Below, one piece after another: positions 15,126-64,000 of a DNA stretch of 64,000 nt. Made by a program: the position numbers and the translations under genes. Position 1 is the first letter of the stretch, and each line of letters begins with the position of its first letter. This DNA comes from a virus. The stretch lies in IMG/VR virus record IMGVR_UViG_3300042883_000874, positions 1-64,000 of that record; one strand, 5' to 3'. The notes under the pieces are model-generated. The model worked only from the letters and a program-made list of their open reading frames with translations. It did not search any database and was not told the DNA's origin.

Positions 15126-15139
15126 TAATATAAAAAATT

Positions 15140-15703: not shown

Positions 15704-15721
15704 ACTAAAAATAAACCAACT

Positions 15722-15907
15722 ATGAACTGTTTAAATTGTGGAAATAAATTATCATGTGGCTGTCAAAAAAGAGTAGCTACTGATGGTAAAAATACATGCA
15801 GCACTTGTTTAGCTGCATATGAAATTAAATTAAAAGCTGCTAAGTTAGCAGGGACTACTGTACCTAATGCAATACCAAATAAAAATATAATATATCAAAA
15901 GCCATAG
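15722..15907 (+). CDS. Small Cys-rich (Zn-binding-like) protein
   Basis: CLNC...SCGC...CSTC. AAACCAAC motif immediately upstream. Confidence 0.7.
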   Translation: MNCLNCGNKLSCGCQKRVATDGKNTCSTCLAAYEIKLKAAKLAGTTVPNAIPNKNIIYQKP

Positions 15908-15928
15908 TAACTACTAAAACATATACAA

Positions 15929-19117: not shown

Positions 19118-19167
19118 AAGATTGCAAATAAGAAATAATTTATGTATATTAACTATAAAATAACAAT

Positions 19168-42156: not shown

Positions 42157-45100
42157 ATGGCAGAAGAATTAGCTAGTCAAGGACAAGAACAAGAACAACT
42201 TGCTCCTCAAGAAAGTGAATTAACTAATGGGGCTCCTGCTTTACAAGCTTTAAATAATTCTGCTGTTGATAGAATAAGACAAATTGAAGAATCTTTAAAT
42301 TTACCAGCTAGACCAAATAGTATTGATGCTTATAAAAATATAGCAGGTAATCCTATAACAGGATCTAATCCTTCAGCAAAAAATTCAAATAGCTCTGTTG
42401 ACTTTTTTACAAGCATGGATAAAGCTTTATCAGCTATGCCTAAAAAAGAAAGTGATATCTATGGAGCAATGAGACCATTTAGTTATAATGGTGATACTGA
42501 TGGAGCTAACTTTGAAAGATACCATTCTTCTGGTGATTTGTATAATAAAATTGGCTTTTCTCCTTATAGAGATAATGAATCTTTATATAATGATAAGATG
42601 ACATTTGGTGATGAGTTTGTAAGAGCTGCATCACAATGGGATAACTTAGTAGGTACAGGTTTTAGATCCGGAATTAGGTCTTGGAGTACTTTATTTACTG
42701 ATCCTTTAGCTCCAGATTTAGAAGGTGCTAGAGAAATGGAAAGAATAATGGCTGTTGGTTCATCTACAAAAGGTGGTATTGGTGGTTTTTTTATAAATAC
42801 TTTTTTAAACTCAGGATATACTATTGGTATTGGTGCAGATTTTTTAGCTGAAGAATTAGCTTTAATGGGATTAACTGCTGCTACTGGTGGACTAATGGGA
42901 GCAACTGGTGCTTCTATGATGGTAGGTAAAGGCTTAAATGCTGTTGAAAATGTTTTTCAAGGAGCTAAAACTGCTTTTGCTGGGTCAAAAAGAATGGAGA
43001 ATCTCCGTGCTATAAACAGTGTTCCTGAAATGAAAAGTCTTTGGACTAAGATGAGTCAAGGAACTAAAAGTGTTGTAAGAGAAACTGCTAATATTTTAAA
43101 TCCTTTAGACCAAACTGTTGATGCATTAAGAGCTACTGACTATGCAAGTAACTATGCTAAGATGACCAAAACTTTTGGAGCTTTTGCTGATGACATGTTG
43201 ATGATGAAAGGAGCTGTTTCTGAAGCTAAGCTTGAAGGTGGGATGGCTAAGATTAATATTACAGAAGATCTTGTTGCAAAATATAGATCTGAAAATGGTA
43301 AAGATCCTGATGGAGCAGAGATGCTAAAGATAGAAAAAATTGCTAATGATAAAGCTTATCAAGTTGCTTTTTGGAACTTACCTGCAATTACTACTAGTAA
43401 TAAGTTAATGTATGCTACAATGCTTGCTCCTTTAAGAAGTGTTATGGGAAGAGAAGGTGCTGTTAAATTAGTAGATGATTACTTGTTTAATGGTAAAACA
43501 TTCTCTGCTGTAGGTGAAGGATTCTTATCTAAAGGTAAAGCTGCATTACAATCTTTTACAAAACCTAAATTTTATGGTCAGTTTGGTATGAATTATCTTA
43601 AAGCAAACTTTGCTGAAGGTATTCAAGAAAACTTACAAGAAGCTATATCTAGTGGAGCTGCTAAACATGCAATGCAATTATATACAGATCCTATTAAAGC
43701 AGGTTATGAAGGTTATATGCCTCATTTTATGCAAGGTCTTGGTGAACAGTTTTCTGCACAAGGAGCTGAAACATTTGCTGGTGGTTTTGCTATGGGTATG
43801 TTTGCTCAACCTGTAATGGCTGCACCTTCTGTTGCTATAAGTAAGCTAGTTAAAGCTTGGGGTACTGAAAATTATGCTGCTGCTGAAAAATTAAACAAAG
43901 AATTTAAAGCTAAAAATGCACAATATTTAAATGACTTTTATGATAAAGCATTAATTACATTAGCTCCTGATATAGACAATTCTATAACAACAGGTAGATT
44001 AGCTGATGATATGTATACAGCTGCTAGAAATGGTAAAAAGAAAGAAGCTATTGATGCTATAGAAAACATTAAAGATAATAAAATACTAGTAGCCCTTCAA
44101 ACTGGTAAATTAGATATTATGATTAACAAAGTTGCTCAATATAAAAACTTAAGTAGAGCTGAAGTTGTTGAAGCATTTGGTAAATATGGTATTAAAGAAC
44201 AAGATGTAGACAGTGCTCTAGGTAAAATAGATGGTATTGTTGCAAGAGCTAATCAACTTAAAAAAGACTATGAAGATGTTGCCGAAAAATATCCTAATCC
44301 ATTTAATCCTAATAAATTTATATTGGGAACTTCTGAAAGAAAAGCTGCAGAAATTGCTTACAAAGCTTGGGAAACTGCTAAGTATAACTTAACATTTGCT
44401 AAAGCTACTTATACTTCTCACAGTAAAAGAGTAGCTGATGTAGCTAATATTTTCTCAAATATTTCTAATGACCTAGCTAAAGCTGATGCTCAAAACTTAA
44501 TGACATTGCTTAACCCTGCAACAACAAAAGGTGAGATCTTAGCACTAAGGCAAGAGCTTTCTGTTCTAGATGATAATGTTCCTGAACAAAAAAAGCTTAA
44601 AGCAGAAAAAACTAAACAGCTAGAAACTATAAATAATTTCTATGAAGCTGTTAAAGCTGTTAAAGAAGCAAAAACTCCTGAAGAAAAAGAAGCTAAAGAT
44701 GAAATAGCTAAGAAAGCTTTTATGGAGCATGTTAAATTCTTAGCTAAAAAGAATGATCATATTGTATTTAATGAAGATATAGAAAAAGCTTATAGTGTAG
44801 TTAAAGATCATATGAGTCTTAAAGATGATATGAAAGGTCTTGCTGAAAGTATTAATGTATTAATGGCTCCTCAAAACTTTTTTAAATTACACACTAGATT
44901 AAATGATGCTTATAGTGAAATTCTTAATAATAAAGAAGGTATTATTGAAGAAAATCAAAAGTTAATTAATAGATTAAACAGTATCAATGGTATATTAAAT
45001 TTAGTTACTGTAGACTCAGGTTTAAATATCCCTAATGAATTAATAGAAAAATATGTTGAAGCTTTAGATAATGATATAGAAATGCCAGTAGCTACATACT

Positions 45101-47628
45101 TTATGGATGCTCAAGGTAATAAAGTAACTGCAGGTCCTCAATTTGATATTGCTTTAAAATTATTCAGCAACTTTACAGCTATTGCTGCTAAAGAAAAAGA
45201 AGATGAGCTTAAAAATAGACCAGTAAAAACATTACAAAGTACTATTAATGACATAATAGCTAACAAAGATTTTATTAAACTATCTGAAGATGGTACACAT
45301 TATGTAAATACTAAAACTGGTAAAAAGTATGAGAGAGTTACTAACTACATTGCTGATGAAAAATCTAAAAATGATTTTAAAGATGGTATTGAAAAAGGTG
45401 AAGATATAGAAGATTACAAACAAAGATTAATTGGATTAAACTATAAAGGAAAACCTTTAACAAAAAAGCTTACAACAGCTTCTTCTCAGATTATTGGTAC
45501 AAAAATAGATGTTCTAGTAAGAGATTTCTTTAATGGAGAACTTAAAGATTTATCAACATATGATGTATCTTCTTTAGAAGAGGTTCAAGCCTTTGTAAAA
45601 GAGTTACAACAAATTAAAGATAAAATGGATGCTAGAGGTGAAAAAGTTCTAGCAAATGATATTTTATTATATGATGATAACTTAGGTGTTGCTGGTACTG
45701 TAGATTTACTTACCTATACTGAGAGTGGTGATATCCGTATATATGATATGAAATCCATGAGAGGTAATCAGTTTACTAATGTTTATTTTAGTGGTATAAA
45801 TGAAGGAAAAACAGTATATGATAATATTTTTGAAGAAGGTAAAGATTCTAATAAAGTAAAACATCAAAAACAATTATCATTATATAGAATTTTATTAAAT
45901 AATACTCACAACTTAAGAGCAAAAACTCTTGCTGTAATGCCTATTGAAGTAATATATCAACCAGGTGATGTTGTAACTAGTGAATTAAATCTATTACCTG
46001 GAGTAAGAGTAACTCCTTTAGATCAAATTAAAGATGCTAGATTACTTCCTTTAAGAGATCAAGGTGAAAAAATAATTTCTTCATTAAGTCCTACAAGAAA
46101 AGAAGCACCAAAGACTGAAGAAGAAGCTAAAGAACAAGCTATTGAAGCTGAGACTAAAAGATTGTTAATGCAACCTAGAGAGAGTCTTACTCCTGCTGAA
46201 GAAAAAGCTTTAAGATTTGGATTGCCGGGCTCTTCTACTTTACAGACTAGAAAAGAATTTATTGAAAAAAGAATAGAGTTACTAGAGAAAAAAGCTGAAG
46301 CTTTAGGTTTAGATGCTATTGAGATTAATGATACTCTTGCTTACTTAGATGGTATATTAGATACAAGTACTGAAAGTATTCAAAACAATCTTAAAAATAT
46401 AGATGATCAGATTAAAAGTTTAAATAATATTATTAAGTCTAAAAGCTCTAAGAAAACTGCAAAAGGTGTTAAAGTTCAAGAGAAGATAGCTGAACTTAAA
46501 GCTGCCCGTACAGCAGAGTTTCAGTTGTTAAATGCTATTACAGATAGAGTAAAAGAACTTGAAGAAGATTTATCTGATGTTGAAGCTGTACAACAAGACT
46601 TACAAAAACAAGCTCAATACTATTCTTCATTGATTAGTGACCCTACTCTTACTACTTATACAAGAGATGAGTTAATTGCTAGAAGAGATAAGATAAACTC
46701 TAAGATAAATACTATAGGTAAATTACTTATAGCTGTTAGAAAAGCTATTGCTGATTCAATAAGATATATTAAAGAACATGTTAGTTTGTTATTTCAAACT
46801 GATAAAAATCTTAAGACTTTTATATCAGATAATGAGTATGAAAATTTTCAATATCCTACAATAAAAAATAAGATTGAGAGTCTTCAAAATGAAGTATTAA
46901 ATAACATAAATTCAGCTGAGTTTCTTGAAGTAGTAAAAACTAAAGAGGAAGAAAGGCAAGCTCAATTACTAGCTGCTTTATTAAAATATCAAGATCAAGT
47001 AAGATACTTAAGTGAACTAATTGATAACTATAAAGAAAACAATATAGGAAATAAGTTTACTACTACTACAATGAATCTTAATGCTAAAGAAGTTGTTGCT
47101 AGTAAACAAAAAGAATATCCTGTTACTATCAGTAGAAAGAATGCTAGAATTCAATCAAGAATTAAAGAAGCTAAACTTGCAGCTAGAGATGTTGCTGAAG
47201 TTGAGACAGTTACAGTTCCAACAGGAGAAGTAGTTGTTTCAAAAGTAGGGCCAACAAAAGTAACTAGTCAACAGTTAAATGAGAATTTAAATTTAAAAAG
47301 TTTAAAGGTTGCTCAAACTAATAAATTTGAAGTTATTTATGATAATATTCAGTATAAAATTGAGAAAGTTGGAACAAATTCAGTAACTTTGAAAAGTGCA
47401 CTTGGTACAAAGGTAACAATAAATGAAGATGATCTAGTTAGAGATCTTAGAATTGTACAACCAGGTATTGAGGAATCAACTGTAGAGGAAAATGAAATTA
47501 TTAAAGCTAATGAAAAACTTATTTCTGAAGAGCCTAAAGAGTTTAAAAAAACCAAAGCTGCAGATAAAGAAGATTATGCAAAAAGATTAAAAACAGGAAA
47601 AACAAATCTTATAGAAAACCTTTGTTAA
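42157..47628 (+). CDS. Giant cargo protein with membrane-inserting N-terminal region and PD-(D/E)xK nuclease domain
   Basis: 1823 aa. Gly/Ala hydrophobic helices. GVAGTVDLL...IRIYDMKS...QLSLY motif. Only Cys is the last residue. Confidence 0.72.
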   Translation: MAEELASQGQEQEQLAPQESELTNGAPALQALNNSAVDRIRQIEESLNLPARPNSIDAYKNIAGNPITGSNPSAKNSNSSVDFFTSMDKALSAMPKKESDIYGAMRPFSYNGDTDGANFERYHSSGDLYNKIGFSPYRDNESLYNDKMTFGDEFVRAASQWDNLVGTGFRSGIRSWSTLFTDPLAPDLEGAREMERIMAVGSSTKGGIGGFFINTFLNSGYTIGIGADFLAEELALMGLTAATGGLMGATGASMMVGKGLNAVENVFQGAKTAFAGSKRMENLRAINSVPEMKSLWTKMSQGTKSVVRETANILNPLDQTVDALRATDYASNYAKMTKTFGAFADDMLMMKGAVSEAKLEGGMAKINITEDLVAKYRSENGKDPDGAEMLKIEKIANDKAYQVAFWNLPAITTSNKLMYATMLAPLRSVMGREGAVKLVDDYLFNGKTFSAVGEGFLSKGKAALQSFTKPKFYGQFGMNYLKANFAEGIQENLQEAISSGAAKHAMQLYTDPIKAGYEGYMPHFMQGLGEQFSAQGAETFAGGFAMGMFAQPVMAAPSVAISKLVKAWGTENYAAAEKLNKEFKAKNAQYLNDFYDKALITLAPDIDNSITTGRLADDMYTAARNGKKKEAIDAIENIKDNKILVALQTGKLDIMINKVAQYKNLSRAEVVEAFGKYGIKEQDVDSALGKIDGIVARANQLKKDYEDVAEKYPNPFNPNKFILGTSERKAAEIAYKAWETAKYNLTFAKATYTSHSKRVADVANIFSNISNDLAKADAQNLMTLLNPATTKGEILALRQELSVLDDNVPEQKKLKAEKTKQLETINNFYEAVKAVKEAKTPEEKEAKDEIAKKAFMEHVKFLAKKNDHIVFNEDIEKAYSVVKDHMSLKDDMKGLAESINVLMAPQNFFKLHTRLNDAYSEILNNKEGIIEENQKLINRLNSINGILNLVTVDSGLNIPNELIEKYVEALDNDIEMPVATYFMDAQGNKVTAGPQFDIALKLFSNFTAIAAKEKEDELKNRPVKTLQSTINDIIANKDFIKLSEDGTHYVNTKTGKKYERVTNYIADEKSKNDFKDGIEKGEDIEDYKQRLIGLNYKGKPLTKKLTTASSQIIGTKIDVLVRDFFNGELKDLSTYDVSSLEEVQAFVKELQQIKDKMDARGEKVLANDILLYDDNLGVAGTVDLLTYTESGDIRIYDMKSMRGNQFTNVYFSGINEGKTVYDNIFEEGKDSNKVKHQKQLSLYRILLNNTHNLRAKTLAVMPIEVIYQPGDVVTSELNLLPGVRVTPLDQIKDARLLPLRDQGEKIISSLSPTRKEAPKTEEEAKEQAIEAETKRLLMQPRESLTPAEEKALRFGLPGSSTLQTRKEFIEKRIELLEKKAEALGLDAIEINDTLAYLDGILDTSTESIQNNLKNIDDQIKSLNNIIKSKSSKKTAKGVKVQEKIAELKAARTAEFQLLNAITDRVKELEEDLSDVEAVQQDLQKQAQYYSSLISDPTLTTYTRDELIARRDKINSKINTIGKLLIAVRKAIADSIRYIKEHVSLLFQTDKNLKTFISDNEYENFQYPTIKNKIESLQNEVLNNINSAEFLEVVKTKEEERQAQLLAALLKYQDQVRYLSELIDNYKENNIGNKFTTTTMNLNAKEVVASKQKEYPVTISRKNARIQSRIKEAKLAARDVAEVETVTVPTGEVVVSKVGPTKVTSQQLNENLNLKSLKVAQTNKFEVIYDNIQYKIEKVGTNSVTLKSALGTKVTINEDDLVRDLRIVQPGIEESTVEENEIIKANEKLISEEPKEFKKTKAADKEDYAKRLKTGKTNLIENLC

Positions 47629-47629
47629 T

Positions 47630-50600
47630 ATGGTATGTGATTTAAGTAAAAATAATTTAAAAGAGAATCTTGAAAATTATGTAAACCTTTTAATTGAAGG
47701 GCAACTTTTAAATGAAGAAAAGTTTAATTATAAAGATATAATTGATACTATTCAAAAAGATATAGCAGCTGCAAAAAATGACATTCAACAATCATTAGGT
47801 GTTGCATATCATGTGCCTCAAATTATCTATGATACCATAAAGAATAATCCTGAACTTAGTGAAAAAGAACTTGTTAAAAGAGGTTATGATTCAACTCAGT
47901 TAATTAAAGACATAACTGCTTTAGAAGATGCTGAAGATAAAATGGCTGCTATCTCTACTTTATTAGGTATAGAGAATACAAGTATTGAAGAAATAGAAAA
48001 AGTAATAGCTCAGCAAGCTACAAATCCAGATAAGATTTATTTTAAAGTAGAAGGTTCAGAAGAGCTTGCAATAGATAATATTTTATCTGTTGATGGATAT
48101 AATTTAACAACTCAACAAACAGCTGAAGAAGAAAAAGTAAATGGTAAAACTATCCCTAGTAGAACAGCAAGAGATGCAGATAAAGCATTCTATCAAGATG
48201 GTTTAGCTAAGATTTTACTAGCTAGAACAAGTGCTGACCAAGATTTTACAGAACTTGAATATGATGGTAAAACTGGTTTTAGAGGAAAAGTAATGTATGA
48301 AAAAAACATTCCAGGAAAAAAAAGAGCTGGTAGAGAAGACTGGTTACCTAGAAATGTAGTTATGCTTGTTTTAACTGATAATCAAGGTAATATTATGTAC
48401 TTTGATGAAAATCATAAAATTGCTAATATTAATACAGGTAAACCTATTTACTTTGCATTAAAAACAGTAAGTGTTACTAATACTAAAAACATTAAAGCTA
48501 GTCTAGCTTCTAAATTTAAAAACATAACTCCTGAACAAGAGCAAGAAATTAATGAAAAAGTTAAAAAAGATGCTGAAGCTCTTAATAAACTTAAAAAGAA
48601 ATTAGAAGATACAGAATCAGTTTTAGTTAACTTAACTGGAGGGTCAGTTGGAGTTGCTCAAAAATTAGATATTTTAACAGAGAAAGAACAAAAAGAAGGA
48701 GGAGCTACCTTATCAGAATTTAATCAAGATTCTTTTGACCCAAATATAGTATTTGTTAGAGAGGTATTAAAAGGTGTTACAAGAACTTTACCAGCAGTTA
48801 AGTTTTATACTGCAGAAAATTTAATAACATTAAAGAATTCAACAACTCTTGGTAATCAGGATCCTGAACTAATGGATCATCTTATAACTGTTCTTACTGA
48901 AGATATTGGATTAACTGATGTAGAAAAAGAACAATATGTTAGTCAGTTTATAAATCTTTATAGAGATGCTGCTGAATCTGATGCAAAACTTTTACCTTAT
49001 GTTATTGGTATAAAAACTGATAATAATAAAAAGCTTTATATTAATCTTAATAATGTAAGTGTGCCTTTAGAAAATAAAGAGGTATCTAAGCAAATGCTTA
49101 AAGACTTCTTTACTAATAGTGTATATATTCATTTTAATAATAAACTTTATACAAAACAACAATACACTAAATACACTATTGAAGATACAGCTATTGGGTA
49201 TAAGATAGTTTCTAAAAATGAATTAGCTTATAAACCATTTATATTCAGCAAGTTTACACCTAGAGTTGTAAGAGATAAGAATACAGGTTTACCAATGGTT
49301 GTAAATGGTTATTTAAACTTTGAATCTGAGTTAACTCAAGCTGAAGTTAAACAACAAGTTGTTGAAACTAGAAATAATACTGTAGCTCAAAATATACCAA
49401 TAACCAATACTGAAGCAGAAGAAGACTTGGATGATTTAAAATCTTCTAAGTTAATACAAAACTCTGCTACAGCTAAACAAGATGCTAGAGCTGAAAACTG
49501 GTGGAGAAATGAATCAGCATTGGCTAAAGAAGTGGATAGTGCTGGAAAACCTCTTTTTAGTCTATCCCTATTAAGAAATGTTGTAAACTCTGATGCATGG
49601 GCAAATTTTAGTAATTCAACTATTACTTTATTTAAAGGAGCTAGTTTTACTCAAGTTTATCATGAGGCTTGGCATGCTTTTAGTCAAGTGTATTTAACTA
49701 AAGATGAAAGAACTGAGTTGTTATACAAACCTGTATCAAAACTTCCAGGCAGTTTTAATGTTGTTAAGAAATTTGTAGAACCAGGTGGTGGTGTTTCTTA
49801 TAGAATGGTTACTTTAAACTTTAAAGATCTTGATGTAAACAAGAGACAAGATAGATTATTAATAGAAGAATTTATAGCTGAAGAGTTTAGAAAGTATGCT
49901 ATGAATAATGGTAAGTTTAAAACTGACTCTAAAGCAAAGACTGCCTTAGGTAGAATCTTTGATAGAATATGGAAGGCTTTAAAAGCTCTAGTAGGAAATT
50001 CTGATGTATACTCTAACACAAGTTCAGAAGGTGTTTTAGGTGATATGTTTAATGCTTTATATTCAGCTAAGTCTCCTGAAGACTTATTACCATATTCAGC
50101 TAATCTAAAAAATGCTGAGTTTGGTTCATTAAATAGTGGAGGTATTGTAACAGACAATGCTGAAAATGACTTAAGTGTATCTGAAGCTTTACTATTAACT
50201 AGAACTATAGATGGTATATTATCAGAATATGTAAATGAACAAGTAGGAAAAGGTCACTTTAGTGCAGTAACAAAAGTATTTTCAAGTAGAAAGTCACTTA
50301 CTAATATTTATAATAGAGCAAAGAATAGACTTAATGATAAAATAATTCAGTTAACAGATGAGAGATCTAAGCTTGCACCTACTGATGAACAAGCATTAAC
50401 TATCATTAATGATAAGATTAACTTATTAACAAGAGCTGTTAGAGATGAAGTATTTGGAGATATTGGTAAAGCCTTAGCTGGTCAAACTGCTAATGTTTCA
50501 GTTGTTTCTTTTCATAAAAACAACAGTACATTTAAAGATTTATTATCTACATTCAAACCTATAGTAGATGAAAAAGATAGTGATGACTATGAAGAGACCA

Positions 50601-53600: not shown

Positions 53601-56600
53601 CAACAGATTATATTAAAGCTAATAACTTTAACAGTCCTGAAGAGGCACAAACAGCTTGGGATAAAGTTAAATACAAAAGACTTGAAAGTAAATTTCATGA
53701 TTATACTGAAGAATTCAAGGAGAGTATTGATGATTATGTAAAGTTTAAGAAAGAAGAATTACTTGAAGAACTAGGCTGGACAGAAGATGATTTATATGCT
53801 GAAAAAGTAGATGATGCAAAAATTAAATCAATGCTTGTAGTTTTAAATAAAGAATTTAAAAGACAAGGCTTTAGTGCACATGAAAGAGAATTATTAGAAT
53901 CATCATCTAATATTGACAAGTTAGACTTAAGTGTTAGTCCTTTAGCAGCTAGATTTGAAAGAATGATTATGGCTATGGTTAATAACAGATTAGTTAAGAC
54001 CAAGTTAAAAGGTGAACCTTTAGTTGAGGTATCATCAGCTTTCATGCAAAATACTAAACTTAGAAATGCTACTGCAGAAGAAAAAGCTAAATATAAAGAT
54101 GATTTTGCAACTAATGGTTTAAAACCTTATGCTGTTGATGGTATAAATAACAGTATAGGCTTTATGTTCAAAAGAGCCTTAGGTAAGATGGATGAAAATT
54201 TATTTCAAACTGATTACTTTATTCTTAATGAAGCTGGTGAATATGTAAATTCAGGACAGCCTATTGCTATATATAAAGATGAAGATCAAGAAGAACTTGA
54301 CTTTGATGCTAGTTTCATTAGATTAAATGAAATGCTTAGAGTTGATGCCTGGAGAGCTAATGATGAGAATAATAAAAAGTTAAGACTTACAGGTGTAAGG
54401 ATTCCAGTACAAGGTCATAACTCTATGGAGTTTGGTGAAGTAGCTGAGTTCTTAAGACCAGAGGCTGGACCAATTATCATTATTCCTGCTGAGATTGTAG
54501 CTAAATCAGGTACTGACTTTGACGTTGATAAGATGACTACCTACATGCCATTTCTTACTAGAAGTGGTAAGTTAATGAGGAAGTATGATAAAGAAGGAAT
54601 TGAAGCAGAAAGAAAAGAGTTAGAACAAAAGTTTGAAGATTTAAAAATTACTAAAGGAGCTATTGAAATACTTAAAAATAAAAAACAAGCTCAATGGTTA
54701 GATATTAATCTTAAACTTAATGACTTTAGAAAAGCTGTTAGCATAAGAGCTAGAGGTTTAAATATTGATGCTGATTTATTAAATTCACTTACAAGTTCTA
54801 AAAGTAAAGAGATCATAAAAATTATGAGTGATCCAAATGTAGAAAATCTTGTAAAAGAATTCTTTCCTAAAGCTAGTCTTATTTACAACTACTCAATAAA
54901 AGGAATTACTTTAGAAGATGTTGATGCTGTTGATGGAGCTTTAAGATCATTATATAAAAATAAATCTGAACTTAGTAAAGTATATACTGAACTTTCTGAT
55001 CTTAATGATAATGAAAATAACTTAGGAGGTGGTCTTCAAAATAAACTAATTCAAGATATGGTTAATATTCTTGAGTTACCTGAACTAGCTGCTTCATTAA
55101 TGTCTCCAAATGATACTAACTTAGTTAAGCCTTATGCTGATAAGATAAAAGGTTATATACAAGAAGCTGATAATGAGACTGACTTTACCAAATCTCTAAT
55201 GACTGGTAATAAAATGTACAAGAAAGGAATCAGTACTACAAAAATATATACTGAAACTTATAATATTAAAAAGCATCAAGAAAACTTTAGTAGTAAAGAC
55301 TCATTAGGTATTGCTGCTGTAGATAACTACATCAATAACTTGCTTAATATGGCAGGAGCTAAGATGCAAAAATCTGTAAATGTTACAGCAAAAGTAGCTG
55401 AAACTAAAAGATCTTTCAATAAAAAAACAAATAAATGGGATACAAAAACTGTATGGGCTAATCAAGTTGTAGAAATTCCTTTAGATTTAAATCTTGCTCA
55501 TAACAAACTTGATGGTGCTATATCCTTATCTCACATCATGGATAAAGAAGGTAAGAATTCTATTGCTGATATTATCAATCAGATGATGAATGGTTTTGTG
55601 GATGCTGGTAAAGATGCTTGGGTTGCTTACTTACAAGGTAATCCTGAAGTTGTACCTAAGTTCTTATTCTTATTAGAGGCTGGTGTTCCTATTGAAACTA
55701 TAGCATACTTTGTATCTAATCCAATGACTAGACAGTATGTTAAAGACAAAGCTAAGGCTAAAGCTACTTTATCAAAGTTGTTTAATTTTGGTACTCAGTA
55801 TGATGTAGCTCCTAATATGTTAAAGACTATTTCAGAATATTTACCAGAAGCTGAAGCTGAAATTCTCTCTAAAAATGGTTATAAGGACTTGCCAAAAGAT
55901 AGTATTTATAATATTACAACAGCTTTAAACTATTTTAAGAAACCTGAAACTTTCACTAAAGAAACTCTTGAAGGATTAGTAAAATCAAAGTTAAACTATA
56001 AAGATCCTAATCAAATAGCTGCATTCTTAGAGTACTTGTATGTAGAAAAAATTATTGAGGATTATGATGCAATGAAAAAAGCAATGAATCCTGATACTAA
56101 ACCTAGTGGTGATCAATACTCAGCTCAAGCAAAAATTGAAGAAGTTGCTGGTCTTGCAAATACACCAACTTTAGATCCTGGTCCAATACAAAAACTATCT
56201 ACAGATAGTATTATATCTCCATATTTTATACAAGATTTTGCTAGAAGATTGTTTAGTAGATTATTTAAGTTAAGAGATGATGCTCAGTTAAATAACTTTC
56301 TTATTAAAACTTTTAAAAATAGAACTGCTATGTCTCAAGCAAAAAAAGCTACAGGATATGACAGTGAAACTTATATTACTAAGTTTAAAAACTTTATTTC
56401 TCAGTACATTTTTGCTAATGAGTTAAGAGTTTATAAATCTGGAGATACTGAATATAAAAATGAAGTTATTAATCCTAAGTTTTTAGAACAACTTAATCAG
56501 GATTTTGATGCTGGTTTATACTTAGCTACTAGTACTGATGAAAACTCTTATAAGAATAGAGGTTTAACTCCTATTAATGGTAAAGCATTTCCAAGATTAG

Positions 56601-58651
56601 TAAAAATGGGGAAAGATCAACAAATGTATTTTGTACCTAATGAAAAACTAAGAACTGATTTTATTGAGTTTGGGTTAGAGAGAGAATACTTAAGAAAGAG
56701 AACTACTCTTGCTGATGTTATTGATACAAATGAGTTTCTTACCAGAAGAAAAAGATTAAAAGATTCAGGTTCTTTAGAGTATAAACAAACAGATGAAGAA
56801 ACTAATGAAGAATATGTTAATAGATTAAATAATCTTACCTATGAAGATATGTTAGCTAATAAAGCTTTAACTAATACTTACAACATATGGCAGTTATTTA
56901 GATCTGGAGACAATACTATAGCTAGAGAGTTGATGGATATCATTACAAACTATCCTGAGATGAGTGATCTTACTAAATACTCTATGTTAAAACAGTTTAT
57001 GCCTCAAGGTATACCTAACATAGCTGCTTATAGAGATGTGTTAAACTTCCAATTAAAAAATTATGAGAATCTTGATGAAGGTTTAATTAGTGAATACTAT
57101 ACCCAATGGAATAATTTATCTAATGTTGGTGAACCTAAATTAACTAGTAAAAAATACAGTGATGGTAAAGCTAATGCTTACATAAGTAAGTTTTTTGAGA
57201 ATCTTCCTATCTATGCTTTCTTACAATCAGGTATGGATTCAAGTAAGTTCTCTTTATCTAGTATGATGCCTTATGAAAAGTATCAAGAAATAATGGAAAA
57301 AGCTTCTGAGAAGTTTCTTAAAAAGATTGAAACAACTGATCCTGATACAATTTTTGGTGGTTTAAAGAAACTGTTTGAAATGGAGAATAGTGCATCTCAA
57401 GGAAAATTAAGAAACAGAGGAGCTAATTTAAAAGTTGATATTTCTAACTTACCTGATGCTGAAAATAACATCTATGAACAACCATTCATTAAGCCAGTAA
57501 CAGGAGATACTGAAATTCCTACAGGAATATTTAATATAACTAGTACTTATGTTCAGAATGGTAGAGAGTATCCAGTTACTAAGGATAGGGTTGAAAAATT
57601 AATAAAAGCAAACCCTAATGTTATATTCTTACTTTCTCCAGCTGACTTACACAAGGTTGGTAAGGACTTAACTCCTGAAGAAATTAAAGCTGCTCAAAAA
57701 AATATTGATATTGCTATTGACAGAATATTAAGTCAAGGTAATGATGTAGTAATATTTGCTGAAGGCTTTGGAGATTCTCCTAAGAACTTCTTCAGTACTA
57801 GTACTGACATGAGTACTAAACCAGTAATTAGTCCAGTTGTAACTGAAAAGAGTACAACTACTCAACAATCTGCTGAAGAAAAAGAAGTTGATAGACTTAG
57901 AGCAAAAGAAAAAGCAGCGTATGCTGCTATGACTAACCCAGCAGATCAAGAAAAGAGAAAAGAAATTTATCTTAAGTATGATAAGTTACTTACTCCTTTA
58001 ATGAAAAAGATTGATGCTACTCAACCATCTAGTAGTGTTATACCTAAAGGTTTTAAACTTTCTATAGATAAAAAAGGTAAAGATCAAGGTAAAGCTAATT
58101 TAGCAAATGCTTTTATTTCTTATCCTAATTCTGGAACATCAAGTTATGCTTATTTACAAGATGCTAAAAAACAAGGTATTCCTGTTAATGATGAAATTAA
58201 AGTTGGCCCACAAGTAATAGCTTTTGTTTCTGTAAATGGTAATAATAAAGCTACAGATAAACAGATAGAAGATACTTATTTACAAGCTAGAGAAATAATT
58301 GAAGCAGGTGGTACTATTATAATGGACTCAACTTCTGATGCTAATAGATCATGGAATAAACAAGGAGAAGCTTTAGTACAAGCTGAATTAGGAGTTCCAA
58401 CAGGTCAAACTTCTAAAGGGTATAACTATTGGGGAATTAATCCTGAAAGTACTACTCAACCATCTACTGAAGCATTAGACTTTAAAACTATGCCTGAATT
58501 TACAATAGATAGAAAGAGAGAAATTTTAACTAACTTAGCAGCCAAACATGGTGTAACTCAACAAGAAGCTTATGAGTATATCAATGAAGCTTTGAATGAT
58601 AAAACTAAGAACCCTGTTACTATAATTAATAAACTAAAAGAATGTTACTAA
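47630..58651 (+). CDS. Virion-packaged two-barrel RNA polymerase polyprotein with zincin domain
   Basis: 3673 aa. Catalytic GTDFDVDK (DFDVD at 54515-54529), RIPVQG and DADGQ motifs. HEAWH...EEFIAE metallopeptidase motif (49661-49675). Confidence 0.9.
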   Translation: MVCDLSKNNLKENLENYVNLLIEGQLLNEEKFNYKDIIDTIQKDIAAAKNDIQQSLGVAYHVPQIIYDTIKNNPELSEKELVKRGYDSTQLIKDITALEDAEDKMAAISTLLGIENTSIEEIEKVIAQQATNPDKIYFKVEGSEELAIDNILSVDGYNLTTQQTAEEEKVNGKTIPSRTARDADKAFYQDGLAKILLARTSADQDFTELEYDGKTGFRGKVMYEKNIPGKKRAGREDWLPRNVVMLVLTDNQGNIMYFDENHKIANINTGKPIYFALKTVSVTNTKNIKASLASKFKNITPEQEQEINEKVKKDAEALNKLKKKLEDTESVLVNLTGGSVGVAQKLDILTEKEQKEGGATLSEFNQDSFDPNIVFVREVLKGVTRTLPAVKFYTAENLITLKNSTTLGNQDPELMDHLITVLTEDIGLTDVEKEQYVSQFINLYRDAAESDAKLLPYVIGIKTDNNKKLYINLNNVSVPLENKEVSKQMLKDFFTNSVYIHFNNKLYTKQQYTKYTIEDTAIGYKIVSKNELAYKPFIFSKFTPRVVRDKNTGLPMVVNGYLNFESELTQAEVKQQVVETRNNTVAQNIPITNTEAEEDLDDLKSSKLIQNSATAKQDARAENWWRNESALAKEVDSAGKPLFSLSLLRNVVNSDAWANFSNSTITLFKGASFTQVYHEAWHAFSQVYLTKDERTELLYKPVSKLPGSFNVVKKFVEPGGGVSYRMVTLNFKDLDVNKRQDRLLIEEFIAEEFRKYAMNNGKFKTDSKAKTALGRIFDRIWKALKALVGNSDVYSNTSSEGVLGDMFNALYSAKSPEDLLPYSANLKNAEFGSLNSGGIVTDNAENDLSVSEALLLTRTIDGILSEYVNEQVGKGHFSAVTKVFSSRKSLTNIYNRAKNRLNDKIIQLTDERSKLAPTDEQALTIINDKINLLTRAVRDEVFGDIGKALAGQTANVSVVSFHKNNSTFKDLLSTFKPIVDEKDSDDYEETSDTAQQELATSLDASSNDVASEKLADDLVLYVIKSLNKQTKDGEPELNELGFPEPIEFLPFWRVLMDKASGETSPLGLYNNLKNASKVSPLFTQLLGKIYSQQTEEGELLSPSDSLTKMFKEGSDIGALWMKFVQSTNLHKVDIVSTVVQEYSNKPTDIRVGKTTADYLGIVNTDWPLAFQQKEIDSFTYKKDQLNYIDLEAVVNRYLIKGVNNENKNVYSVSKENYIPFLNSIGLFLSDMSEIKDSLVPNDIDFIADAIGQTQDSNDLATKDKDKVNIDNIIVYLGKARTLSNGTKLPANAFAVNKLAETEASYSTEYANSMRFNAAKKLKSLFALNSTDTQKINGLKKANEQGDLYSDNPELVHMNFLNPKSNPLTKGSIILKSLFSSVTGIKIKDNDINYRDLSGISYIDETYASDGVTSAKMGFLDKVLSVFISTLGGGYMDGIQAGDKSSNFGVKLNVIDTYDEKINKGLYVDTVAFMKDASGRSIMGYNPMQKILDMLYPKLEGEIRRIAMVKADPEYYNNITGFERGTEFDIFDEILDGSPGLKEALKSEELFESLNKVGDLYIVLNDNPALKKQLNDNIIKFFDKLEESYNKDLFDPIFGVDQPLPAILKELILKDLVNNTKEKNNIYGATPEDVDLNIKKAAIKSYMFNNFIHKTETTLLLQGDGFQFDHTKDDMTKRGPGSQSGGTIFPVDLLTKIFIDAKVGRPYEQKLIADKIIAEKEVRTYGPTLNSAIIQESEVTSVYFNMYRDLFKRDYIDKGLTDEDEINAALYGVDPDTGEIGNAEVDAEGNYSNVFKGGKMKAFINIQDADGQALITFDTYRILRQAEGNWSNEQEALYFKVINGETITATELTNMFPVYKLQYDGPLATEVGRFPIQAFHKYSLFPLIPSVIKDFPANDVHKAMISQNIDYITFTSGSKRSSIKSSPESKGDSIYEGDTSNLKADFTFTPNTIYIAYLKNQTSVNTYFKQQSTFSTQLRKLITSLLYAYGVPTDYIKANNFNSPEEAQTAWDKVKYKRLESKFHDYTEEFKESIDDYVKFKKEELLEELGWTEDDLYAEKVDDAKIKSMLVVLNKEFKRQGFSAHERELLESSSNIDKLDLSVSPLAARFERMIMAMVNNRLVKTKLKGEPLVEVSSAFMQNTKLRNATAEEKAKYKDDFATNGLKPYAVDGINNSIGFMFKRALGKMDENLFQTDYFILNEAGEYVNSGQPIAIYKDEDQEELDFDASFIRLNEMLRVDAWRANDENNKKLRLTGVRIPVQGHNSMEFGEVAEFLRPEAGPIIIIPAEIVAKSGTDFDVDKMTTYMPFLTRSGKLMRKYDKEGIEAERKELEQKFEDLKITKGAIEILKNKKQAQWLDINLKLNDFRKAVSIRARGLNIDADLLNSLTSSKSKEIIKIMSDPNVENLVKEFFPKASLIYNYSIKGITLEDVDAVDGALRSLYKNKSELSKVYTELSDLNDNENNLGGGLQNKLIQDMVNILELPELAASLMSPNDTNLVKPYADKIKGYIQEADNETDFTKSLMTGNKMYKKGISTTKIYTETYNIKKHQENFSSKDSLGIAAVDNYINNLLNMAGAKMQKSVNVTAKVAETKRSFNKKTNKWDTKTVWANQVVEIPLDLNLAHNKLDGAISLSHIMDKEGKNSIADIINQMMNGFVDAGKDAWVAYLQGNPEVVPKFLFLLEAGVPIETIAYFVSNPMTRQYVKDKAKAKATLSKLFNFGTQYDVAPNMLKTISEYLPEAEAEILSKNGYKDLPKDSIYNITTALNYFKKPETFTKETLEGLVKSKLNYKDPNQIAAFLEYLYVEKIIEDYDAMKKAMNPDTKPSGDQYSAQAKIEEVAGLANTPTLDPGPIQKLSTDSIISPYFIQDFARRLFSRLFKLRDDAQLNNFLIKTFKNRTAMSQAKKATGYDSETYITKFKNFISQYIFANELRVYKSGDTEYKNEVINPKFLEQLNQDFDAGLYLATSTDENSYKNRGLTPINGKAFPRLVKMGKDQQMYFVPNEKLRTDFIEFGLEREYLRKRTTLADVIDTNEFLTRRKRLKDSGSLEYKQTDEETNEEYVNRLNNLTYEDMLANKALTNTYNIWQLFRSGDNTIARELMDIITNYPEMSDLTKYSMLKQFMPQGIPNIAAYRDVLNFQLKNYENLDEGLISEYYTQWNNLSNVGEPKLTSKKYSDGKANAYISKFFENLPIYAFLQSGMDSSKFSLSSMMPYEKYQEIMEKASEKFLKKIETTDPDTIFGGLKKLFEMENSASQGKLRNRGANLKVDISNLPDAENNIYEQPFIKPVTGDTEIPTGIFNITSTYVQNGREYPVTKDRVEKLIKANPNVIFLLSPADLHKVGKDLTPEEIKAAQKNIDIAIDRILSQGNDVVIFAEGFGDSPKNFFSTSTDMSTKPVISPVVTEKSTTTQQSAEEKEVDRLRAKEKAAYAAMTNPADQEKRKEIYLKYDKLLTPLMKKIDATQPSSSVIPKGFKLSIDKKGKDQGKANLANAFISYPNSGTSSYAYLQDAKKQGIPVNDEIKVGPQVIAFVSVNGNNKATDKQIEDTYLQAREIIEAGGTIIMDSTSDANRSWNKQGEALVQAELGVPTGQTSKGYNYWGINPESTTQPSTEALDFKTMPEFTIDRKREILTNLAAKHGVTQQEAYEYINEALNDKTKNPVTIINKLKECY
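58017..58466 (+). repeat. 15-bp direct repeat CTACTCAACCATCTA (TQPS linker)
   Basis: Exact copies at 58017-58031 and 58452-58466. Variant at 57858-57871. Confidence 0.75.
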
Positions 58652-58652
58652 T

Positions 58653-61001
58653 ATGAGCTGTGTAAATCCCAATGATTCTTTATTTAAGATTTTACTTAAA
58701 AAAGTTAAAAATCCTTTATTAGCTGAGATTGAGTTTGATAAACAGTCTGAAGGTGAACCTGTAAATAAAGCTGAGGCTTCTTATGATAAAGCTCTTATTA
58801 AAAATGCTGGCAATGATGTATCTAAAATATTTGAAAACTATCTTGCTCAATTTGGTATCACTGTAAAAGATATCAATGAAGTAAAAGATAAGTTAAATAT
58901 TGATGAAGTAGGTTATGCTGACATTCTATCTAAGATTGCCTTTGTTAAAGACAGGAAAAACTTGCCAGAAATAGCTGGTGAATTCATTGCTTACATGATG
59001 AAACATAATGGTCTTGTAAAAGACATTATATTAGACTTTGCAAAGAATGATGCTAAACTAAAGATAAAAAAGAGTGCTATATACTATGTAGCATCAGGTT
59101 TAGGTAAAAGTGTTTTGGCTAAAAAAAATCCTAACAAGTTTGTTGATATGGATGATTTATTATTTAAAGCTGTTAAGAATATAACAGGTTTAGATATGAA
59201 TACTATGGATGCATCTATGGAGCTTAACAAAAATGAAGATGTTGGTAAAGAACTTGTAAAATTAATAGAAGCAGTAAGTGATACTAAAATTATATTAAGT
59301 CCTTTAAATGAGGCTAAAATTAAAAACTTAGGCTTAACATATAAGAAATTCTTTGTTCCTAGTGCAGAGAATATACCTAACATAATAAAAGGTATATCTG
59401 AAAGATCTACTAATCCTTATGATATTGATGAAGAGTTATATAATGAGTTGTATGTAGATAGAGTATCTAAAAATAAAAATGTTTTTCAAGTTAATAACTA
59501 TATTGAGAATGAGTTTGAAAATTTAAGTACTGATACTCAAAACTTAGAAGAATTCTTAGATAGAGGTGATTATGTTACTACTAATAATTATAGTGATTTA
59601 TTAAAAGATCAAGACTATTTTAAAAGAATAGGTATTCTAATTGCTAATGAACTACAAGGTAGATATGATATTTCAAATGATAAGTCATTAGTAAGTAAAA
59701 TCAAGAAGATTATTAGTAAGTTCTTTGGGTTATTTAAGAAATCTGATGTTACTACTATTAATAAAAACATTGGTATTATTGTAGATAATGTAGTTAAGCA
59801 AAATAAAAACTTTATTACAGCAAGTATATATAAACCAGGAGCTGAAGGTAAGATTACCAAACCTGTATCCATTAAACAAGCTTTATTAAAAGATGAGTTT
59901 GGTAAAAAAATTATATATAAGCTTTCACAAAAAGGTTTTATTCTTACAGGATCTACAGCTTTATCAGAACAGGGTACTATATTAAGACCAAATGAGAACC
60001 CTTTACATGATATTGATTGGGTAAGCCCTTTCTCTAGAGAAGAGACAGATAAAATTTTTAAAGAAGTGTATCCTGATGCTATTTTTGTCAGAGACATTCA
60101 AGATGTAAAAGGAGGCTATACTACTGATAGTTATTTAATAGCTCCAGAAGGTTATGAAATTAAAGGTTATGAGGCCAAAAAATATGGTGATAAAATTATT
60201 ATAGATTCTTATAGTGTTGTAGATAAAAAAACTGAGGAAACTGTAGGTACTTATGCTTTAGAGTTTGATGAGGTTAAGAATAAAATGGTTGAAAAGGAAA
60301 ATGGTGTAACTGGTAAAGTTATTGACTTTTTTAGCTATGAAGATTACCAAAAATCAAATAAAAATGAAGCCTTTGAATTTGTTACTTCTGATAAAGTTTC
60401 TATTAAATTAGCTAATTGGAAAGATATCTTTGCTGCTAAATTAAAATTTGCAAGATATAAAGACATATGGGATTATAACAGGTTTGTACCTAATGAGAAT
60501 ATTCAAGAGATAGATGAGGAGATAAATGATTATATTACTAAAAAAGTTATTAAAAACTTTGGAATAGCAATTCCTGGTAAAGATAGTGAGCCTCTTGTTC
60601 CTAAAGCAGAAACTGATAAGTTTAATAATGCTGTTATGATGAACAATAATATATTACCATCTGAGTTTTTTACAGGTATAAATAATGTTCATAATTGGAA
60701 ACTTAATAAGAAAAATCTATATAATTTAGTAGATAAAGACACTAAAGAAATATACTTAAGAGATGTAAACCTTAAAACAGGTTATATGGAAGAAGGAGAT
60801 GTTATAGTTACACCTATCAATGTTGCTGAACAAGCTGAGACAATAGATTCTGTAAACAATAGTATAGAAAAATATAGACTTGATGAAATTTTAGCTGAAA
60901 AAGGTTATGATGCAAATGATATTATTAGTAATTTAGAGGCTGCAACAACCCAAGAAGAATTAAATAAGATTATTAACAAATTATTAAAACTGATATGCTA
61001 G
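58653..61001 (+). CDS. Cargo protein with P-loop-like and nucleotidyltransferase-like domains
   Basis: 782 aa. ASGLGKS...FVDMDD and ILTGSTAL...HDIDW motifs. Cys only at residues 3 and 782. Confidence 0.65.
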   Translation: MSCVNPNDSLFKILLKKVKNPLLAEIEFDKQSEGEPVNKAEASYDKALIKNAGNDVSKIFENYLAQFGITVKDINEVKDKLNIDEVGYADILSKIAFVKDRKNLPEIAGEFIAYMMKHNGLVKDIILDFAKNDAKLKIKKSAIYYVASGLGKSVLAKKNPNKFVDMDDLLFKAVKNITGLDMNTMDASMELNKNEDVGKELVKLIEAVSDTKIILSPLNEAKIKNLGLTYKKFFVPSAENIPNIIKGISERSTNPYDIDEELYNELYVDRVSKNKNVFQVNNYIENEFENLSTDTQNLEEFLDRGDYVTTNNYSDLLKDQDYFKRIGILIANELQGRYDISNDKSLVSKIKKIISKFFGLFKKSDVTTINKNIGIIVDNVVKQNKNFITASIYKPGAEGKITKPVSIKQALLKDEFGKKIIYKLSQKGFILTGSTALSEQGTILRPNENPLHDIDWVSPFSREETDKIFKEVYPDAIFVRDIQDVKGGYTTDSYLIAPEGYEIKGYEAKKYGDKIIIDSYSVVDKKTEETVGTYALEFDEVKNKMVEKENGVTGKVIDFFSYEDYQKSNKNEAFEFVTSDKVSIKLANWKDIFAAKLKFARYKDIWDYNRFVPNENIQEIDEEINDYITKKVIKNFGIAIPGKDSEPLVPKAETDKFNNAVMMNNNILPSEFFTGINNVHNWKLNKKNLYNLVDKDTKEIYLRDVNLKTGYMEEGDVIVTPINVAEQAETIDSVNNSIEKYRLDEILAEKGYDANDIISNLEAATTQEELNKIINKLLKLIC

Positions 61002-64000
61002 CCTGCCCAATTGAATCAAGTGATGAGTGGAAAAAGACATTAGCTGATGCTAATGGTGATAGAGATGCTGCACTTATAGAATGGAGAAAACCTGATGGTT
61101 TTGGTTCAAAAGATGAGTTTAACTTAGAAGTTGATGGAGAAACTTTTGAAACAGAAAGACCTGGGCCAACAGAACCTTTAGAGCCTGAAGTAAAACCTGA
61201 TAAGTTTTCTAAATTAATAGATGATATTAAAGTATATCTTACTACACAATACACTATCTTAACTAAAAAGAAGATTGCTGATCAACCTGAAAAGCAAGCT
61301 AGATTGCAAAAGGTTATTGATGACTTTGCAGCTCTTGAAGGAGTTGAGTCTATAACAATGTTTATTGATGATGCTTATAAAAAATCCCAACTTGCTAAAG
61401 ATAGATTTGCTAAGATTATTGCTAATGAAAAGAACTTAACAAGTAGAGAATTAATGCAAGAGTTATCTGCTATTAATGAATTTGCTAATGGTTATTCTAT
61501 TCTTGATGAGATTAATAAACAAGATATTTTTGATTTCTTTAGTGAAAAGGTAGATCCTTCTATTCCAGAAGCACTACTTACTCCTGCTCAAAAACTTACA
61601 AGAGCTATTGAAATAAAAAATAATATAAATCAACAATTTGTTGAAATTGGTAGACCTTTAATAGCTGAGTTTTTATTAGATTATAAATCAGAAAATATTG
61701 GAGAAGATATAATGCCTGAAGTAACTAAACTTCAAGAACAAATTAAAGCTATTGAAAATGATAGTTCTAAAAATGAAGCTGAAAAACTTAAAGCTATAGA
61801 ACCTTTACAAAAAAGACTTGATAAGTTTCAATCTTTTGTTCTTGATAAAGACTCAATGATAGAGCTTTTAAAAGAAGCTAGTTCTGATGAGAGTGTACTT
61901 TCTTACTTAATTGATCCTTTAATTAGTTCTAAAGATGCTGCTTTAGGTTTATTTGCTAAAGCTATAAAGAGTCAACTTACTTATGCTAATGTAAAGAATG
62001 TTGAAACTAAAAATGAATGGGCTAAATACTTTTTAGATTATGCAGATTCTACTTCAATAAGCAGAAACAATGTAGCAGAATTTAATGAAGGTATTTATGA
62101 GTATGTAGAAGAAAGTTATACAGATAGTGTAACAGGAGAAATTGTTACTAAAAGAATTCCTCATTTTGTACAAAAATATGACATGACTGCTTATAATAAA
62201 GCAGCAAAAGCTGAACAAAAAAGAAGAGGTTTAGCTCCTGTTTTAAGTGCAAATCCTACAGAATATGAGCAAAAGAAACTTGATAAGTATAATGAAGGAC
62301 TTGGTAAATGGTATTCTGAAAATAAACAATCTAAACCTATTGAAGAGATAGAAGCTATTATTGCTAGTAAGAAAAAAGAACTAGAAAAAAACTTAATTAG
62401 TCAAAAAGAATATGATGACTGGTATAGTTCTAGAGTTTTTAAAACTAAAAATGGTACTATTCAATATAGGTGGGAAATGACTCAGCCATCAGAAAAGTAT
62501 CTTAATCCAAAATGGTCAGCTCTTTATGATATAAATGGTAAACCTATTGGAGAAAAAGGAAAACTACATCAGTTTTATTTAAAAACTTACTTTGAAGCTC
62601 AAGAACTTCTTCCTGAATCACAAAAATTAGGATACAGATTACCTGATGTTCCTAAAGAAGATTATGAAAGAGTTTTATCTAATGGTCTTATTGATACAGT
62701 TACTGAGAACTTTAAAGATGCTACACAAATTAGAGCTCAAGATTCACAACAATATGGTACAGCTAATGCATCAAACTTAGGTGTTAAGTTTATACCTGTT
62801 CATTATACTCAAAAAAGTTTAGCTCCTGAAGATATAAGTCTTGATTTAGGTAAATCTGTATTATTATTTAGTGCAATGTCTAATAGATTTCATGCTTTAA
62901 ATGAAGTAAATGCTGAGATATCTTTGTTTAAAACAGTTGTTGGAGCTAGAACTGTTGCTGAAACTAACAGCAAAGGAGAGCCTATAATGAATCAAATTGC
63001 TAATAAGCAAAACATTGTAAGATTTCTTAAAAAAAATGGAGAAAGTTATTCTCAAAAACATGTTGATGACTTTATTGATATGATTGTATATGGAGAAACA
63101 CAAGCAGCTGAAGAGTTATTTGGTTTATCTATGAGTAAAATTACAAATACAGCCAGTGGTATATCTGCAGTAACATCTCTTTCATTAGATGCATTAAAGG
63201 GTATGGCCAATAACTTACAAGGTAATATCCAAATGATTATTGAAGCTAACTCTGGACAGTTTTTTGCTAAGTCTAATTTAGCTAATGGTAAAGGTTTTTA
63301 TTGGAAATCTGTACCTTCTATGCTTGCTGACTTTGGTCAACCAACTCCTACTAGTTTATTAGGACAACTTGCTGAATTTTATGATGCCATACAAGGAGAA
63401 TTTATTGATCAGTATGGTAAAAAAGTAACAGGAACTGCAGCTTTAAGATTAATGAGTATAGATACTATATTCTTTAACCAATCTTTTGCTGAACATGAAA
63501 TTCAAGTATCAGGTATGTGTGCTTTAATGGATGCTACAATGGTTACTGATAAAAATACAGGAGAAGTAATAAGTCTTTTACAAGCTCATATTCTCTATGG
63601 AGCATATGGTGTTGCAGAAAATACTAACTTCTCTGAGAAAAAAAGACAAAACTTTCAAAATACTTTACATGCTTTAAATAAAAGAATGCATGGTGTCTAT
63701 AATGAGTTTGATAAAGGTACATCTCAAAAATATTCTGTAAGTAGATTAGCTATAATGTATAGAAAGCATTTAGTACCAGGATACCGTAGAAGATTTAATG
63801 ACTTAGCAATGGATCAAGAACTTGGTACATTTACTGAAGGTTACTATAGAACTTTTTGGGATTTATTTTTCAAAGATTTAGTAACTTTTAAATGGAACAT
63901 GATTGAAGGGTGGTCTACATATACTCCTTTTCAAAAAGCTCAGATGAAAAGAGTTATAGCTGAACTTGCAACAATTGTAACTACTACAGCTTTAATAGCA
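60995..64000 (+). CDS. Giant cargo protein, N-terminal part (runs off the window; absent from ORF track)
   Basis: ATG 60995 overlaps the previous stop. Starts MLACPIESSDEWKK. The same frame reads ...AELATIVTTTALIA at the window end (about 1002 codons). Confidence 0.85.
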   Translation, partial: MLACPIESSDEWKKTLADANGDRDAALIEWRKPDGFGSKDEFNLEVDGETFETERPGPTEPLEPEVKPDKFSKLIDDIKVYLTTQYTILTKKKIADQPEKQARLQKVIDDFAALEGVESITMFIDDAYKKSQLAKDRFAKIIANEKNLTSRELMQELSAINEFANGYSILDEINKQDIFDFFSEKVDPSIPEALLTPAQKLTRAIEIKNNINQQFVEIGRPLIAEFLLDYKSENIGEDIMPEVTKLQEQIKAIENDSSKNEAEKLKAIEPLQKRLDKFQSFVLDKDSMIELLKEASSDESVLSYLIDPLISSKDAALGLFAKAIKSQLTYANVKNVETKNEWAKYFLDYADSTSISRNNVAEFNEGIYEYVEESYTDSVTGEIVTKRIPHFVQKYDMTAYNKAAKAEQKRRGLAPVLSANPTEYEQKKLDKYNEGLGKWYSENKQSKPIEEIEAIIASKKKELEKNLISQKEYDDWYSSRVFKTKNGTIQYRWEMTQPSEKYLNPKWSALYDINGKPIGEKGKLHQFYLKTYFEAQELLPESQKLGYRLPDVPKEDYERVLSNGLIDTVTENFKDATQIRAQDSQQYGTANASNLGVKFIPVHYTQKSLAPEDISLDLGKSVLLFSAMSNRFHALNEVNAEISLFKTVVGARTVAETNSKGEPIMNQIANKQNIVRFLKKNGESYSQKHVDDFIDMIVYGETQAAEELFGLSMSKITNTASGISAVTSLSLDALKGMANNLQGNIQMIIEANSGQFFAKSNLANGKGFYWKSVPSMLADFGQPTPTSLLGQLAEFYDAIQGEFIDQYGKKVTGTAALRLMSIDTIFFNQSFAEHEIQVSGMCALMDATMVTDKNTGEVISLLQAHILYGAYGVAENTNFSEKKRQNFQNTLHALNKRMHGVYNEFDKGTSQKYSVSRLAIMYRKHLVPGYRRRFNDLAMDQELGTFTEGYYRTFWDLFFKDLVTFKWNMIEGWSTYTPFQKAQMKRVIAELATIVTTTALIA

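Follow-up and report, generated by a model that had tools for sequence, protein, structure and literature searches.

Conserved terminal cysteines at the gene junctions of the virion RNA polymerase cargo block of a marine crAss-like phage

The stretch of DNA analysed here, referred to below as the window, comprises positions 1-64,000 of the IMG/VR record IMGVR_UViG_3300042883_000874 (full length 101,922 bp, 85% complete), from a marine crAss-like phage. The G+C content is approximately 30%. Four consecutive open reading frames (ORFs) on the + strand, encoding proteins of 1823, 3673, 782 and 1122 amino acids (aa), are described with respect to the cysteine (Cys) residues at their ends. In gene order they are designated as members of a chain:

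42157..47628, + strand: first chain member, 1823 aa; a single Cys, at the very end of the protein (TGT, 47623-47625), and none at the N-terminus
47630..58651, + strand: second chain member, virion RNA polymerase, 3673 aa; Cys 3 (47636-47638) and Cys 3672 (58643-58645), no other Cys
58653..61001, + strand: third chain member (the "wagon" of an earlier note on this DNA), 782 aa; Cys 3 (58659-58661) and Cys 782 (TGC, 60996-60998), none between
60995..64363 of the full record (the window ends at 64000), + strand: last chain member, 1122 aa; starts MLAC, with Cys 4 (61004-61006)

ORF calling and translation gave 7 Cys in the 7,400 aa of the four proteins, against approximately 95 expected from the average of 1.29% Cys in the ORFs of the window. 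Six of the seven lie within 4 residues of the six neighbour-facing termini, at residue 3 or 4 or in the final or penultimate position. Under random placement, the probability that at least 6 of 7 Cys fall into the 24 junction-facing terminal positions of 7,400 is approximately 8e-15. The two outer ends of the block, the N-terminus of the 1823-aa protein (MAEELASQ) and the C-terminus of the 1122-aa protein (SFQGTLKK), carry no Cys. The seventh residue is the single internal Cys 842 (63518-63520) of the 1122-aa protein, which is common only to one 95%-identical relative and is replaced by L, F, A, I or Y in the 93 other aligned homologs. All Cys and ORF coordinates of the earlier note were reproduced on re-translation, and its caveat that the last ORF holds at least one internal Cys comes down to exactly this one lineage-specific residue. 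The same note described a helix, IINKL..C, shared by two of the C-termini; the five-residue identity is real, but the C-terminal 239 aa of both proteins have no significant similarity (best E 0.16), and the IINKL match is too short to support a duplicated docking module at the two C-termini. The three junctions read as follows:

47623..47638, + strand: junction 1, TGT TAA T ATG GTA TGT (C-terminal Cys, stop, start, Cys 3)
58643..58661, + strand: junction 2, TGT TAC TAA T ATG AGC TGT
60995..61006, + strand: junction 3, a 7-nucleotide (nt) overlap of ATA-TGC-TAG with ATG-CTA-GCC-TGC, in which the terminal Cys codon TGC shares bases with the next ATG

The four ORFs are identified, by homology and gene order, as the virion-packaged RNA polymerase (RNAP) cargo block of the phage, because a gp47/gp50/gp49-like order is present together with a DFDxD motif and upstream structural genes. 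The 3673-aa protein carries DFDVD at residues 2296-2300 (54515..54529, + strand), which corresponds to the DFDxD catalytic signature of crAss-like virion RNAPs. BLASTP matched this protein across the motif region to crAss001 gp50 and to phi14:2 gp66 (1e-8 each), the latter being a structurally characterised crAss-like virion RNAP; DFDVD lies inside the stretch aligned to residues 1314-1405 of gp66 and 1439-1543 of gp50. The 1823-aa protein is partly similar to crAss001 gp47 (3e-14) and has an exonuclease-like domain at residues 1014-1261, the sole PHROG result for the four proteins; a Pfam search of the four gave no match. The 1122-aa protein is homologous to crAss001 gp49 (3e-53) and to phi14:2 g065 (2e-29). 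The block is located where the structural module ends: upstream PHROG matches cover terminase, portal and major head protein (6-7181) as well as a virion structural protein (25047-30245). The proteins of the RNAP block were detected in phi14:2 and crAss001 virions by mass spectrometry. The 1823-aa protein had been proposed as the member that inserts into the membrane; its best 19-residue hydropathy reaches only 1.31, which does not bear this out, and the sole transmembrane-like helix among the four proteins is found instead at residues 987-1005 of the 1122-aa protein (63953-64009 of the full record, hydropathy 2.0). This helix is conserved among homologs and is followed by an acidic run.

The terminal-cysteine rule, a C-terminal Cys matched by an N-terminal Cys in the next protein, is conserved among relatives. 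Ten IMG/VR relatives, with 51-60% identity over the 782-aa-type domain, keep it at every junction between giant ORFs. Among RNAP-like homologs (26-100% identity), Cys lies within 6 residues of both ends in 109 of 120, with 73 internal Cys in the 457,326 residues of this set. Homologs of the 1122-aa protein carry Cys at residue 3-6 in 118 of 120 cases, the 2 exceptions being N-terminally truncated, and a C-terminal Cys in none of the 120; 105 of them lack any further Cys, and all 95 alignment rows share Cys 4. Long homologs of the 1823-aa protein have a C-terminal Cys only in 95 of 124 cases, and their internal Cys content is 0.0078%. Across homologs internal Cys amount to 0.008-0.017% (917,811 residues), compared with 1.29% in the ORFs of the window. 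The pairing logic advanced by the earlier note is thus kept across several hundred homologs and at least four crassvirus lineages, and the terminal Cys of RNAP-operon homologs are conserved, vanish at fusion points and move with new termini.

The rule extends to named phages. In phi14:2 the residues are Cys 1797 (the final one) in g067, Cys 3 and Cys 2179 (of 2180) in g066, and Cys 3 in g065. In crAss001 the positions are Cys 2339 of 2341 in gp47, Cys 5 and Cys 2404 of 2412 in gp50, which has one more internal Cys, and Cys 5 in gp49. Both sets are homologous to the proteins of the window, follow the same order and obey an identical Cys rule, and differ in having three members instead of four, the 782-aa protein being the extra one. 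In crAss002 (MN917146), gp32 has Cys 2019 of 2020, and gp33 reads Met33-Ser-Cys; the start annotated for gp33 probably lies 32 codons upstream of the true one (9270-9370), because Met33-Ser-Cys-Thr-Pro corresponds to the motif with which chain members of other phages begin. The suolivirus cr1_1 follows the rule, as does Leptolyngbya phage Lbo-JY46 (PP438436; unclassified, 125 kb), which lies outside Crassvirales. The region 2723-15629 of Lbo-JY46 encodes a gp49-like giant protein of 2748 aa with a lone Cys 4, preceded by a 1552-aa protein with a lone Cys as the last residue.

The rule is independent of gene arrangement. Across relatives the gene boundaries range from approximately 320 aa before to approximately 1,290 aa after the conserved 782-aa-type domain, each boundary with its own Cys pair, and the junction positions are non-homologous between relatives. 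Where the 1823-aa-type protein is fused to the RNAP (P0229, 4,470 aa), the only Cys is the last residue and the fusion point has none; further fused forms (P0129-P0132) likewise have no Cys at the fusion point. Two homologs of the last protein with an N-terminal extension of approximately 540 aa (P0065, P0074) have as their only Cys residue 5 of the new end. The Cys tracks the termini, because boundaries vary, fusions lose the pair and extended forms carry Cys at the new end; judged from these arrangements, it belongs to the terminus and not to the domain.

The paired Cys codons are identical at all three junctions of the window (TGT/TGT, TGT/TGT and TGC/TGC) and lie 5-13 nt apart, as they might if they were nucleotide signals for bypass, reinitiation or frameshifting, with take-off and landing codons around the stop that yield one polyprotein. 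This explanation is given next to no credence. Codon identity at the junctions of relatives is 11 of 15, no more than is predicted by the bias towards TGT; each downstream ORF has an ATG of its own, 2-4 codons ahead of the Cys; and the TGC at junction 3 is forced by the overlap with ATG. The Cys pairing is kept where gp47 of crAss001 lies on the strand opposite to gp50 and gp49, which refutes such signals as a general mechanism, where the partners are separated by approximately 266 nt (crAss002), and where they lie 561 nt apart and enclose a 162-aa ORF (L009). Translational bypass, readthrough and recoding are excluded by the opposite strands, the two gaps and the level of codon identity, so the constraint acts on the proteins. 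The inserted ORF of L009 (7372-7860) has one internal Cys and no terminal Cys.

At the protein level, the first member has only a C-terminal Cys, the middle members have one at both ends and the last has only an N-terminal Cys, which leaves each thiol a single partner. Chains of only two proteins (L010, cr1_1 and Lbo-JY46) permit no other pairing than that of a C-terminus with the next N-terminus. The thiols might instead bond elsewhere, to the portal, the capsid or other cargo, or the middle proteins might close on themselves from N- to C-terminus while the first pairs with the last. The presence of Cys at both ends of the middle proteins would allow this, and the crAss001 cargo protein gp45 binds both the portal and the tail barrel. 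It is nevertheless regarded as very unlikely: nearly all homologs of the first protein lack an N-terminal Cys and those of the last lack a C-terminal one, neither of which is predicted by an external acceptor, while the two-protein chains permit head-to-tail pairing only and the fused forms drop the pair.

A tether might also be real without being a disulfide, if two thiols shared a metal ion in the manner of a zinc hook or engaged in other thiol chemistry. The same parity and conservation data apply to such a bridge, which needs no oxidant and would agree with anoxic hosts and with the fact that no encoded oxidase was found. The residues near the terminal Cys include 0.3% His, no second Cys and no conserved Asp, Glu or His ligand; the near absence of His and the lack of a second Cys disfavour a local metal site. 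There is only one Cys per side, and the sole solved analogue shows a disulfide. A metal bridge is accordingly thought unlikely.

That analogue is the cyanopodophage A4, in which the C-terminal helix of gp27 reaches into gp26, where a Cys1715-Cys5 disulfide locks it, as seen by cryo-electron microscopy (PNAS 2025, PMC12002296). In the sequences of A4 (Anabaena phage A-4L), gp27 (1717 aa) has a lone Cys 1715 and gp26 (1114 aa) a lone Cys 5. The two are consecutive large ejection proteins with the same single-Cys signature as the three junctions of the window, and their lengths are close to those of its first (1823 aa) and last (1122 aa) proteins. The bond means that in at least one phage the single-Cys signature is a real head-to-tail disulfide. 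A4 differs in having a single link that joins two proteins and is presented as a structural detail, whereas the window has a four-member chain with the RNAP and an enzyme "wagon" between the ends; the A4 paper (PMC12002296) formulates no general rule and does not put forward a linear chain. BLASTP for homology to A4 gp26 and gp27 gave nothing below E 0.6; for the last protein of the window against A4 gp26, a profile search of PDB sequences gave 0 matches, and Foldseek and VIA-align gave only generic helical matches. As no likeness to the A4 proteins was detected, the precedent is an analogy.

The N4-like phages (Schitoviridae) offer a second comparison. They show strong cysteine suppression in their ejection proteins, which has been attributed to passage through the envelope (PMC11445570). 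As in the block of the window, a giant virion RNAP is ejected into the host and Cys is far below the proteome average. The N4-like virion RNAP, however, is one chain of approximately 3,500 aa that is essentially free of Cys, whereas the block of the window is divided among several genes and retains Cys precisely at the ends so created.

Neither phi14:2 nor crAss001 has a counterpart of the 782-aa protein, which also gave no tblastn match among GenBank phages and no Pfam or PHROG match. Its structural model contains a P-loop-kinase-like domain (SGLGKS motif near residue 150; Foldseek values of approximately 3e-3 to adenylate and polynucleotide kinases) and a second domain with a nucleotidyltransferase-like core, weak MenT-like matches (MenT1 toxin) and the signature G-S-x(n)-H-D-I-D-W, which is typical of Pol-beta-type nucleotidyltransferases. 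On this model the protein looks like an injected two-domain enzyme. A terminal helix is modelled at residues 767-781, directly before Cys 782, with a predicted local distance difference test (pLDDT) of 50-62, and the N-terminal 50 aa are flexible. When the C-terminal 120 aa of this protein were co-folded with residues 1-480 of the 1122-aa protein, each with an alignment, the score was 0.11 (mark 0.32), which speaks neither for nor against binding. Cys 3 and Cys 782 are among only 7 invariant columns in the alignment of its homologs. Stand-alone homologs (456-1227 aa) have a Cys at each end and none internally, a pattern that fits the proposal of the earlier note that a protein with Cys at both ends would act as an insertable wagon.

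Head-to-tail disulfide tethers that join the proteins of the cargo block are considered the best reading of these data, and a moderately probable one. The RNAP cargo block would have been purged of Cys like other ejected phage proteins, with one thiol kept 1-6 residues from each chain-facing terminus. Once the particle is assembled, one protein would most likely dock by its C-terminal helix on the next protein; a Lys-rich, helix-like sequence precedes the C-terminal Cys. A disulfide would then join the terminal Cys to the Cys found at residue 3-5 in the next protein, and the 1823, 3673, 782 and 1122 residues would be joined head to tail into a topologically linear, redox-reversible pseudo-polyprotein. 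Such a chain would be functionally equal to the fused forms of relatives and to the single-chain, Cys-free virion RNAP of N4-like phages. It could thread through the narrow tail channel, passage as a thread being possible because the links sit at the very ends; the channel to be passed by the cargo is narrower than 50 Å. Disulfides are present in crassvirus virions, namely in the tail of crAss001. Cys only where the chain is split is what would be expected if a disulfide restored continuity yet left a threadable chain. After entry, the thioredoxin systems of the host would part the subunits. From this pattern we infer a disulfide in the block, 1:1 co-packaging, ordered ejection and reductive release; ordered threading is speculative. 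A more far-reaching version is put forward only tentatively and is doubtful as a whole: the separately translated cargo would be re-joined to one covalent, redox-cleavable thread (approximately 7,400 residues, approximately 0.85 MDa) that is packaged as a unit, ejected processively through the tail as one polypeptide would be, and cut to its working subunits by the reducing cytoplasm of the host, and any protein with two Cys-bearing ends, such as the 782-aa protein, could be inserted in evolution and so be delivered.

Several points weigh against disulfide tethers. Particle assembly occurs in a reducing cytoplasm, and the habitat of gut crassviruses is anoxic. Thioredoxin and glutaredoxin profiles gave no match in the 102-kb record (85% complete); an Erv1 profile also gave none in the phage record, a result that is uninformative as its control matched nowhere either. 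With no encoded oxidoreductase found, oxidation would have to be spontaneous after release. A minority of homologs have 1-3 internal Cys. The published work on phi14:2 and crAss001 makes no mention of cargo cysteines. The case for a disulfide between block proteins draws by analogy on the unrelated cyanophage A4, the only phage in which such an end-to-end link has been seen directly and one whose gp26 and gp27 show no detected likeness in sequence or fold.

A further explanation is that the thiols act only after ejection, or in folding and assembly inside the cell, and form no bond in the virion, for example as redox-sensitive contacts that aid the reassembly of RNAP subunits. The three proteins are believed to function jointly as an RNAP complex, and the time at which the thiols meet is not readable from sequence alone. 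Thiol contacts are, however, disfavoured in a reducing cytoplasm, and both the extreme terminal position and the purge of Cys are expected of proteins that unfold through a channel; action confined to these stages is regarded as improbable.

Other thiol and cargo features were also recorded. Two Cys-poor, cargo-like proteins upstream of the block have one close Cys pair and no other Cys, namely a 925-aa protein (39378-42155, C128/C134) and a 900-aa protein (32936-35638, C103/C106); likewise crAss001 gp45 (C390/C398) and phi14:2 g069 (C369/C378) have one close pair only. By their sequences these pairs may represent a second kind of conserved thiol feature in the cargo. Quite unlike the cargo block, the tail-fibre-like ORFs (13444-30245) are extremely rich in Cys, with 78 in the 1062 aa encoded at 15929-19117, for example, and this content suggests disulfide-stabilised external fibres. 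Many of the RNAP-like homologs P0122-P0239 carry extra precomputed Pfam domains (AlkB-type dioxygenase PF13532, DUF1768/NADAR PF08719, PF18760, PF25176, helicase and kinase), which suggests that enzymes of diverse kinds are carried within the injected chain.

No phages of the human gut are more abundant than crassviruses, which are also widespread in the sea. It is still an open question by what means they package and deliver megadaltons of protein, their RNA polymerase among it (Bayfield 2023; N4 ejection paper of 2026). Full-text searching of the literature found no description of terminal cysteines in crassvirus cargo, and the papers on phi14:2, crAss001, DEV and N4 do not mention them either; the single disulfide of A4 is already published, and the conserved, multi-link, order-wide rule is what is new here. 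As a rule for annotation, the true starts and ends of the giant genes, membership of the chain and the order of its members can be read from the terminal Cys, as for gp33 of crAss002. A conserved head-to-tail tether, if true, would explain the loading of stoichiometric sets of cargo, the free interchange of gene fusions and splits in the block, the purge of all other cysteines and the addition of extra enzymes to the injected payload.

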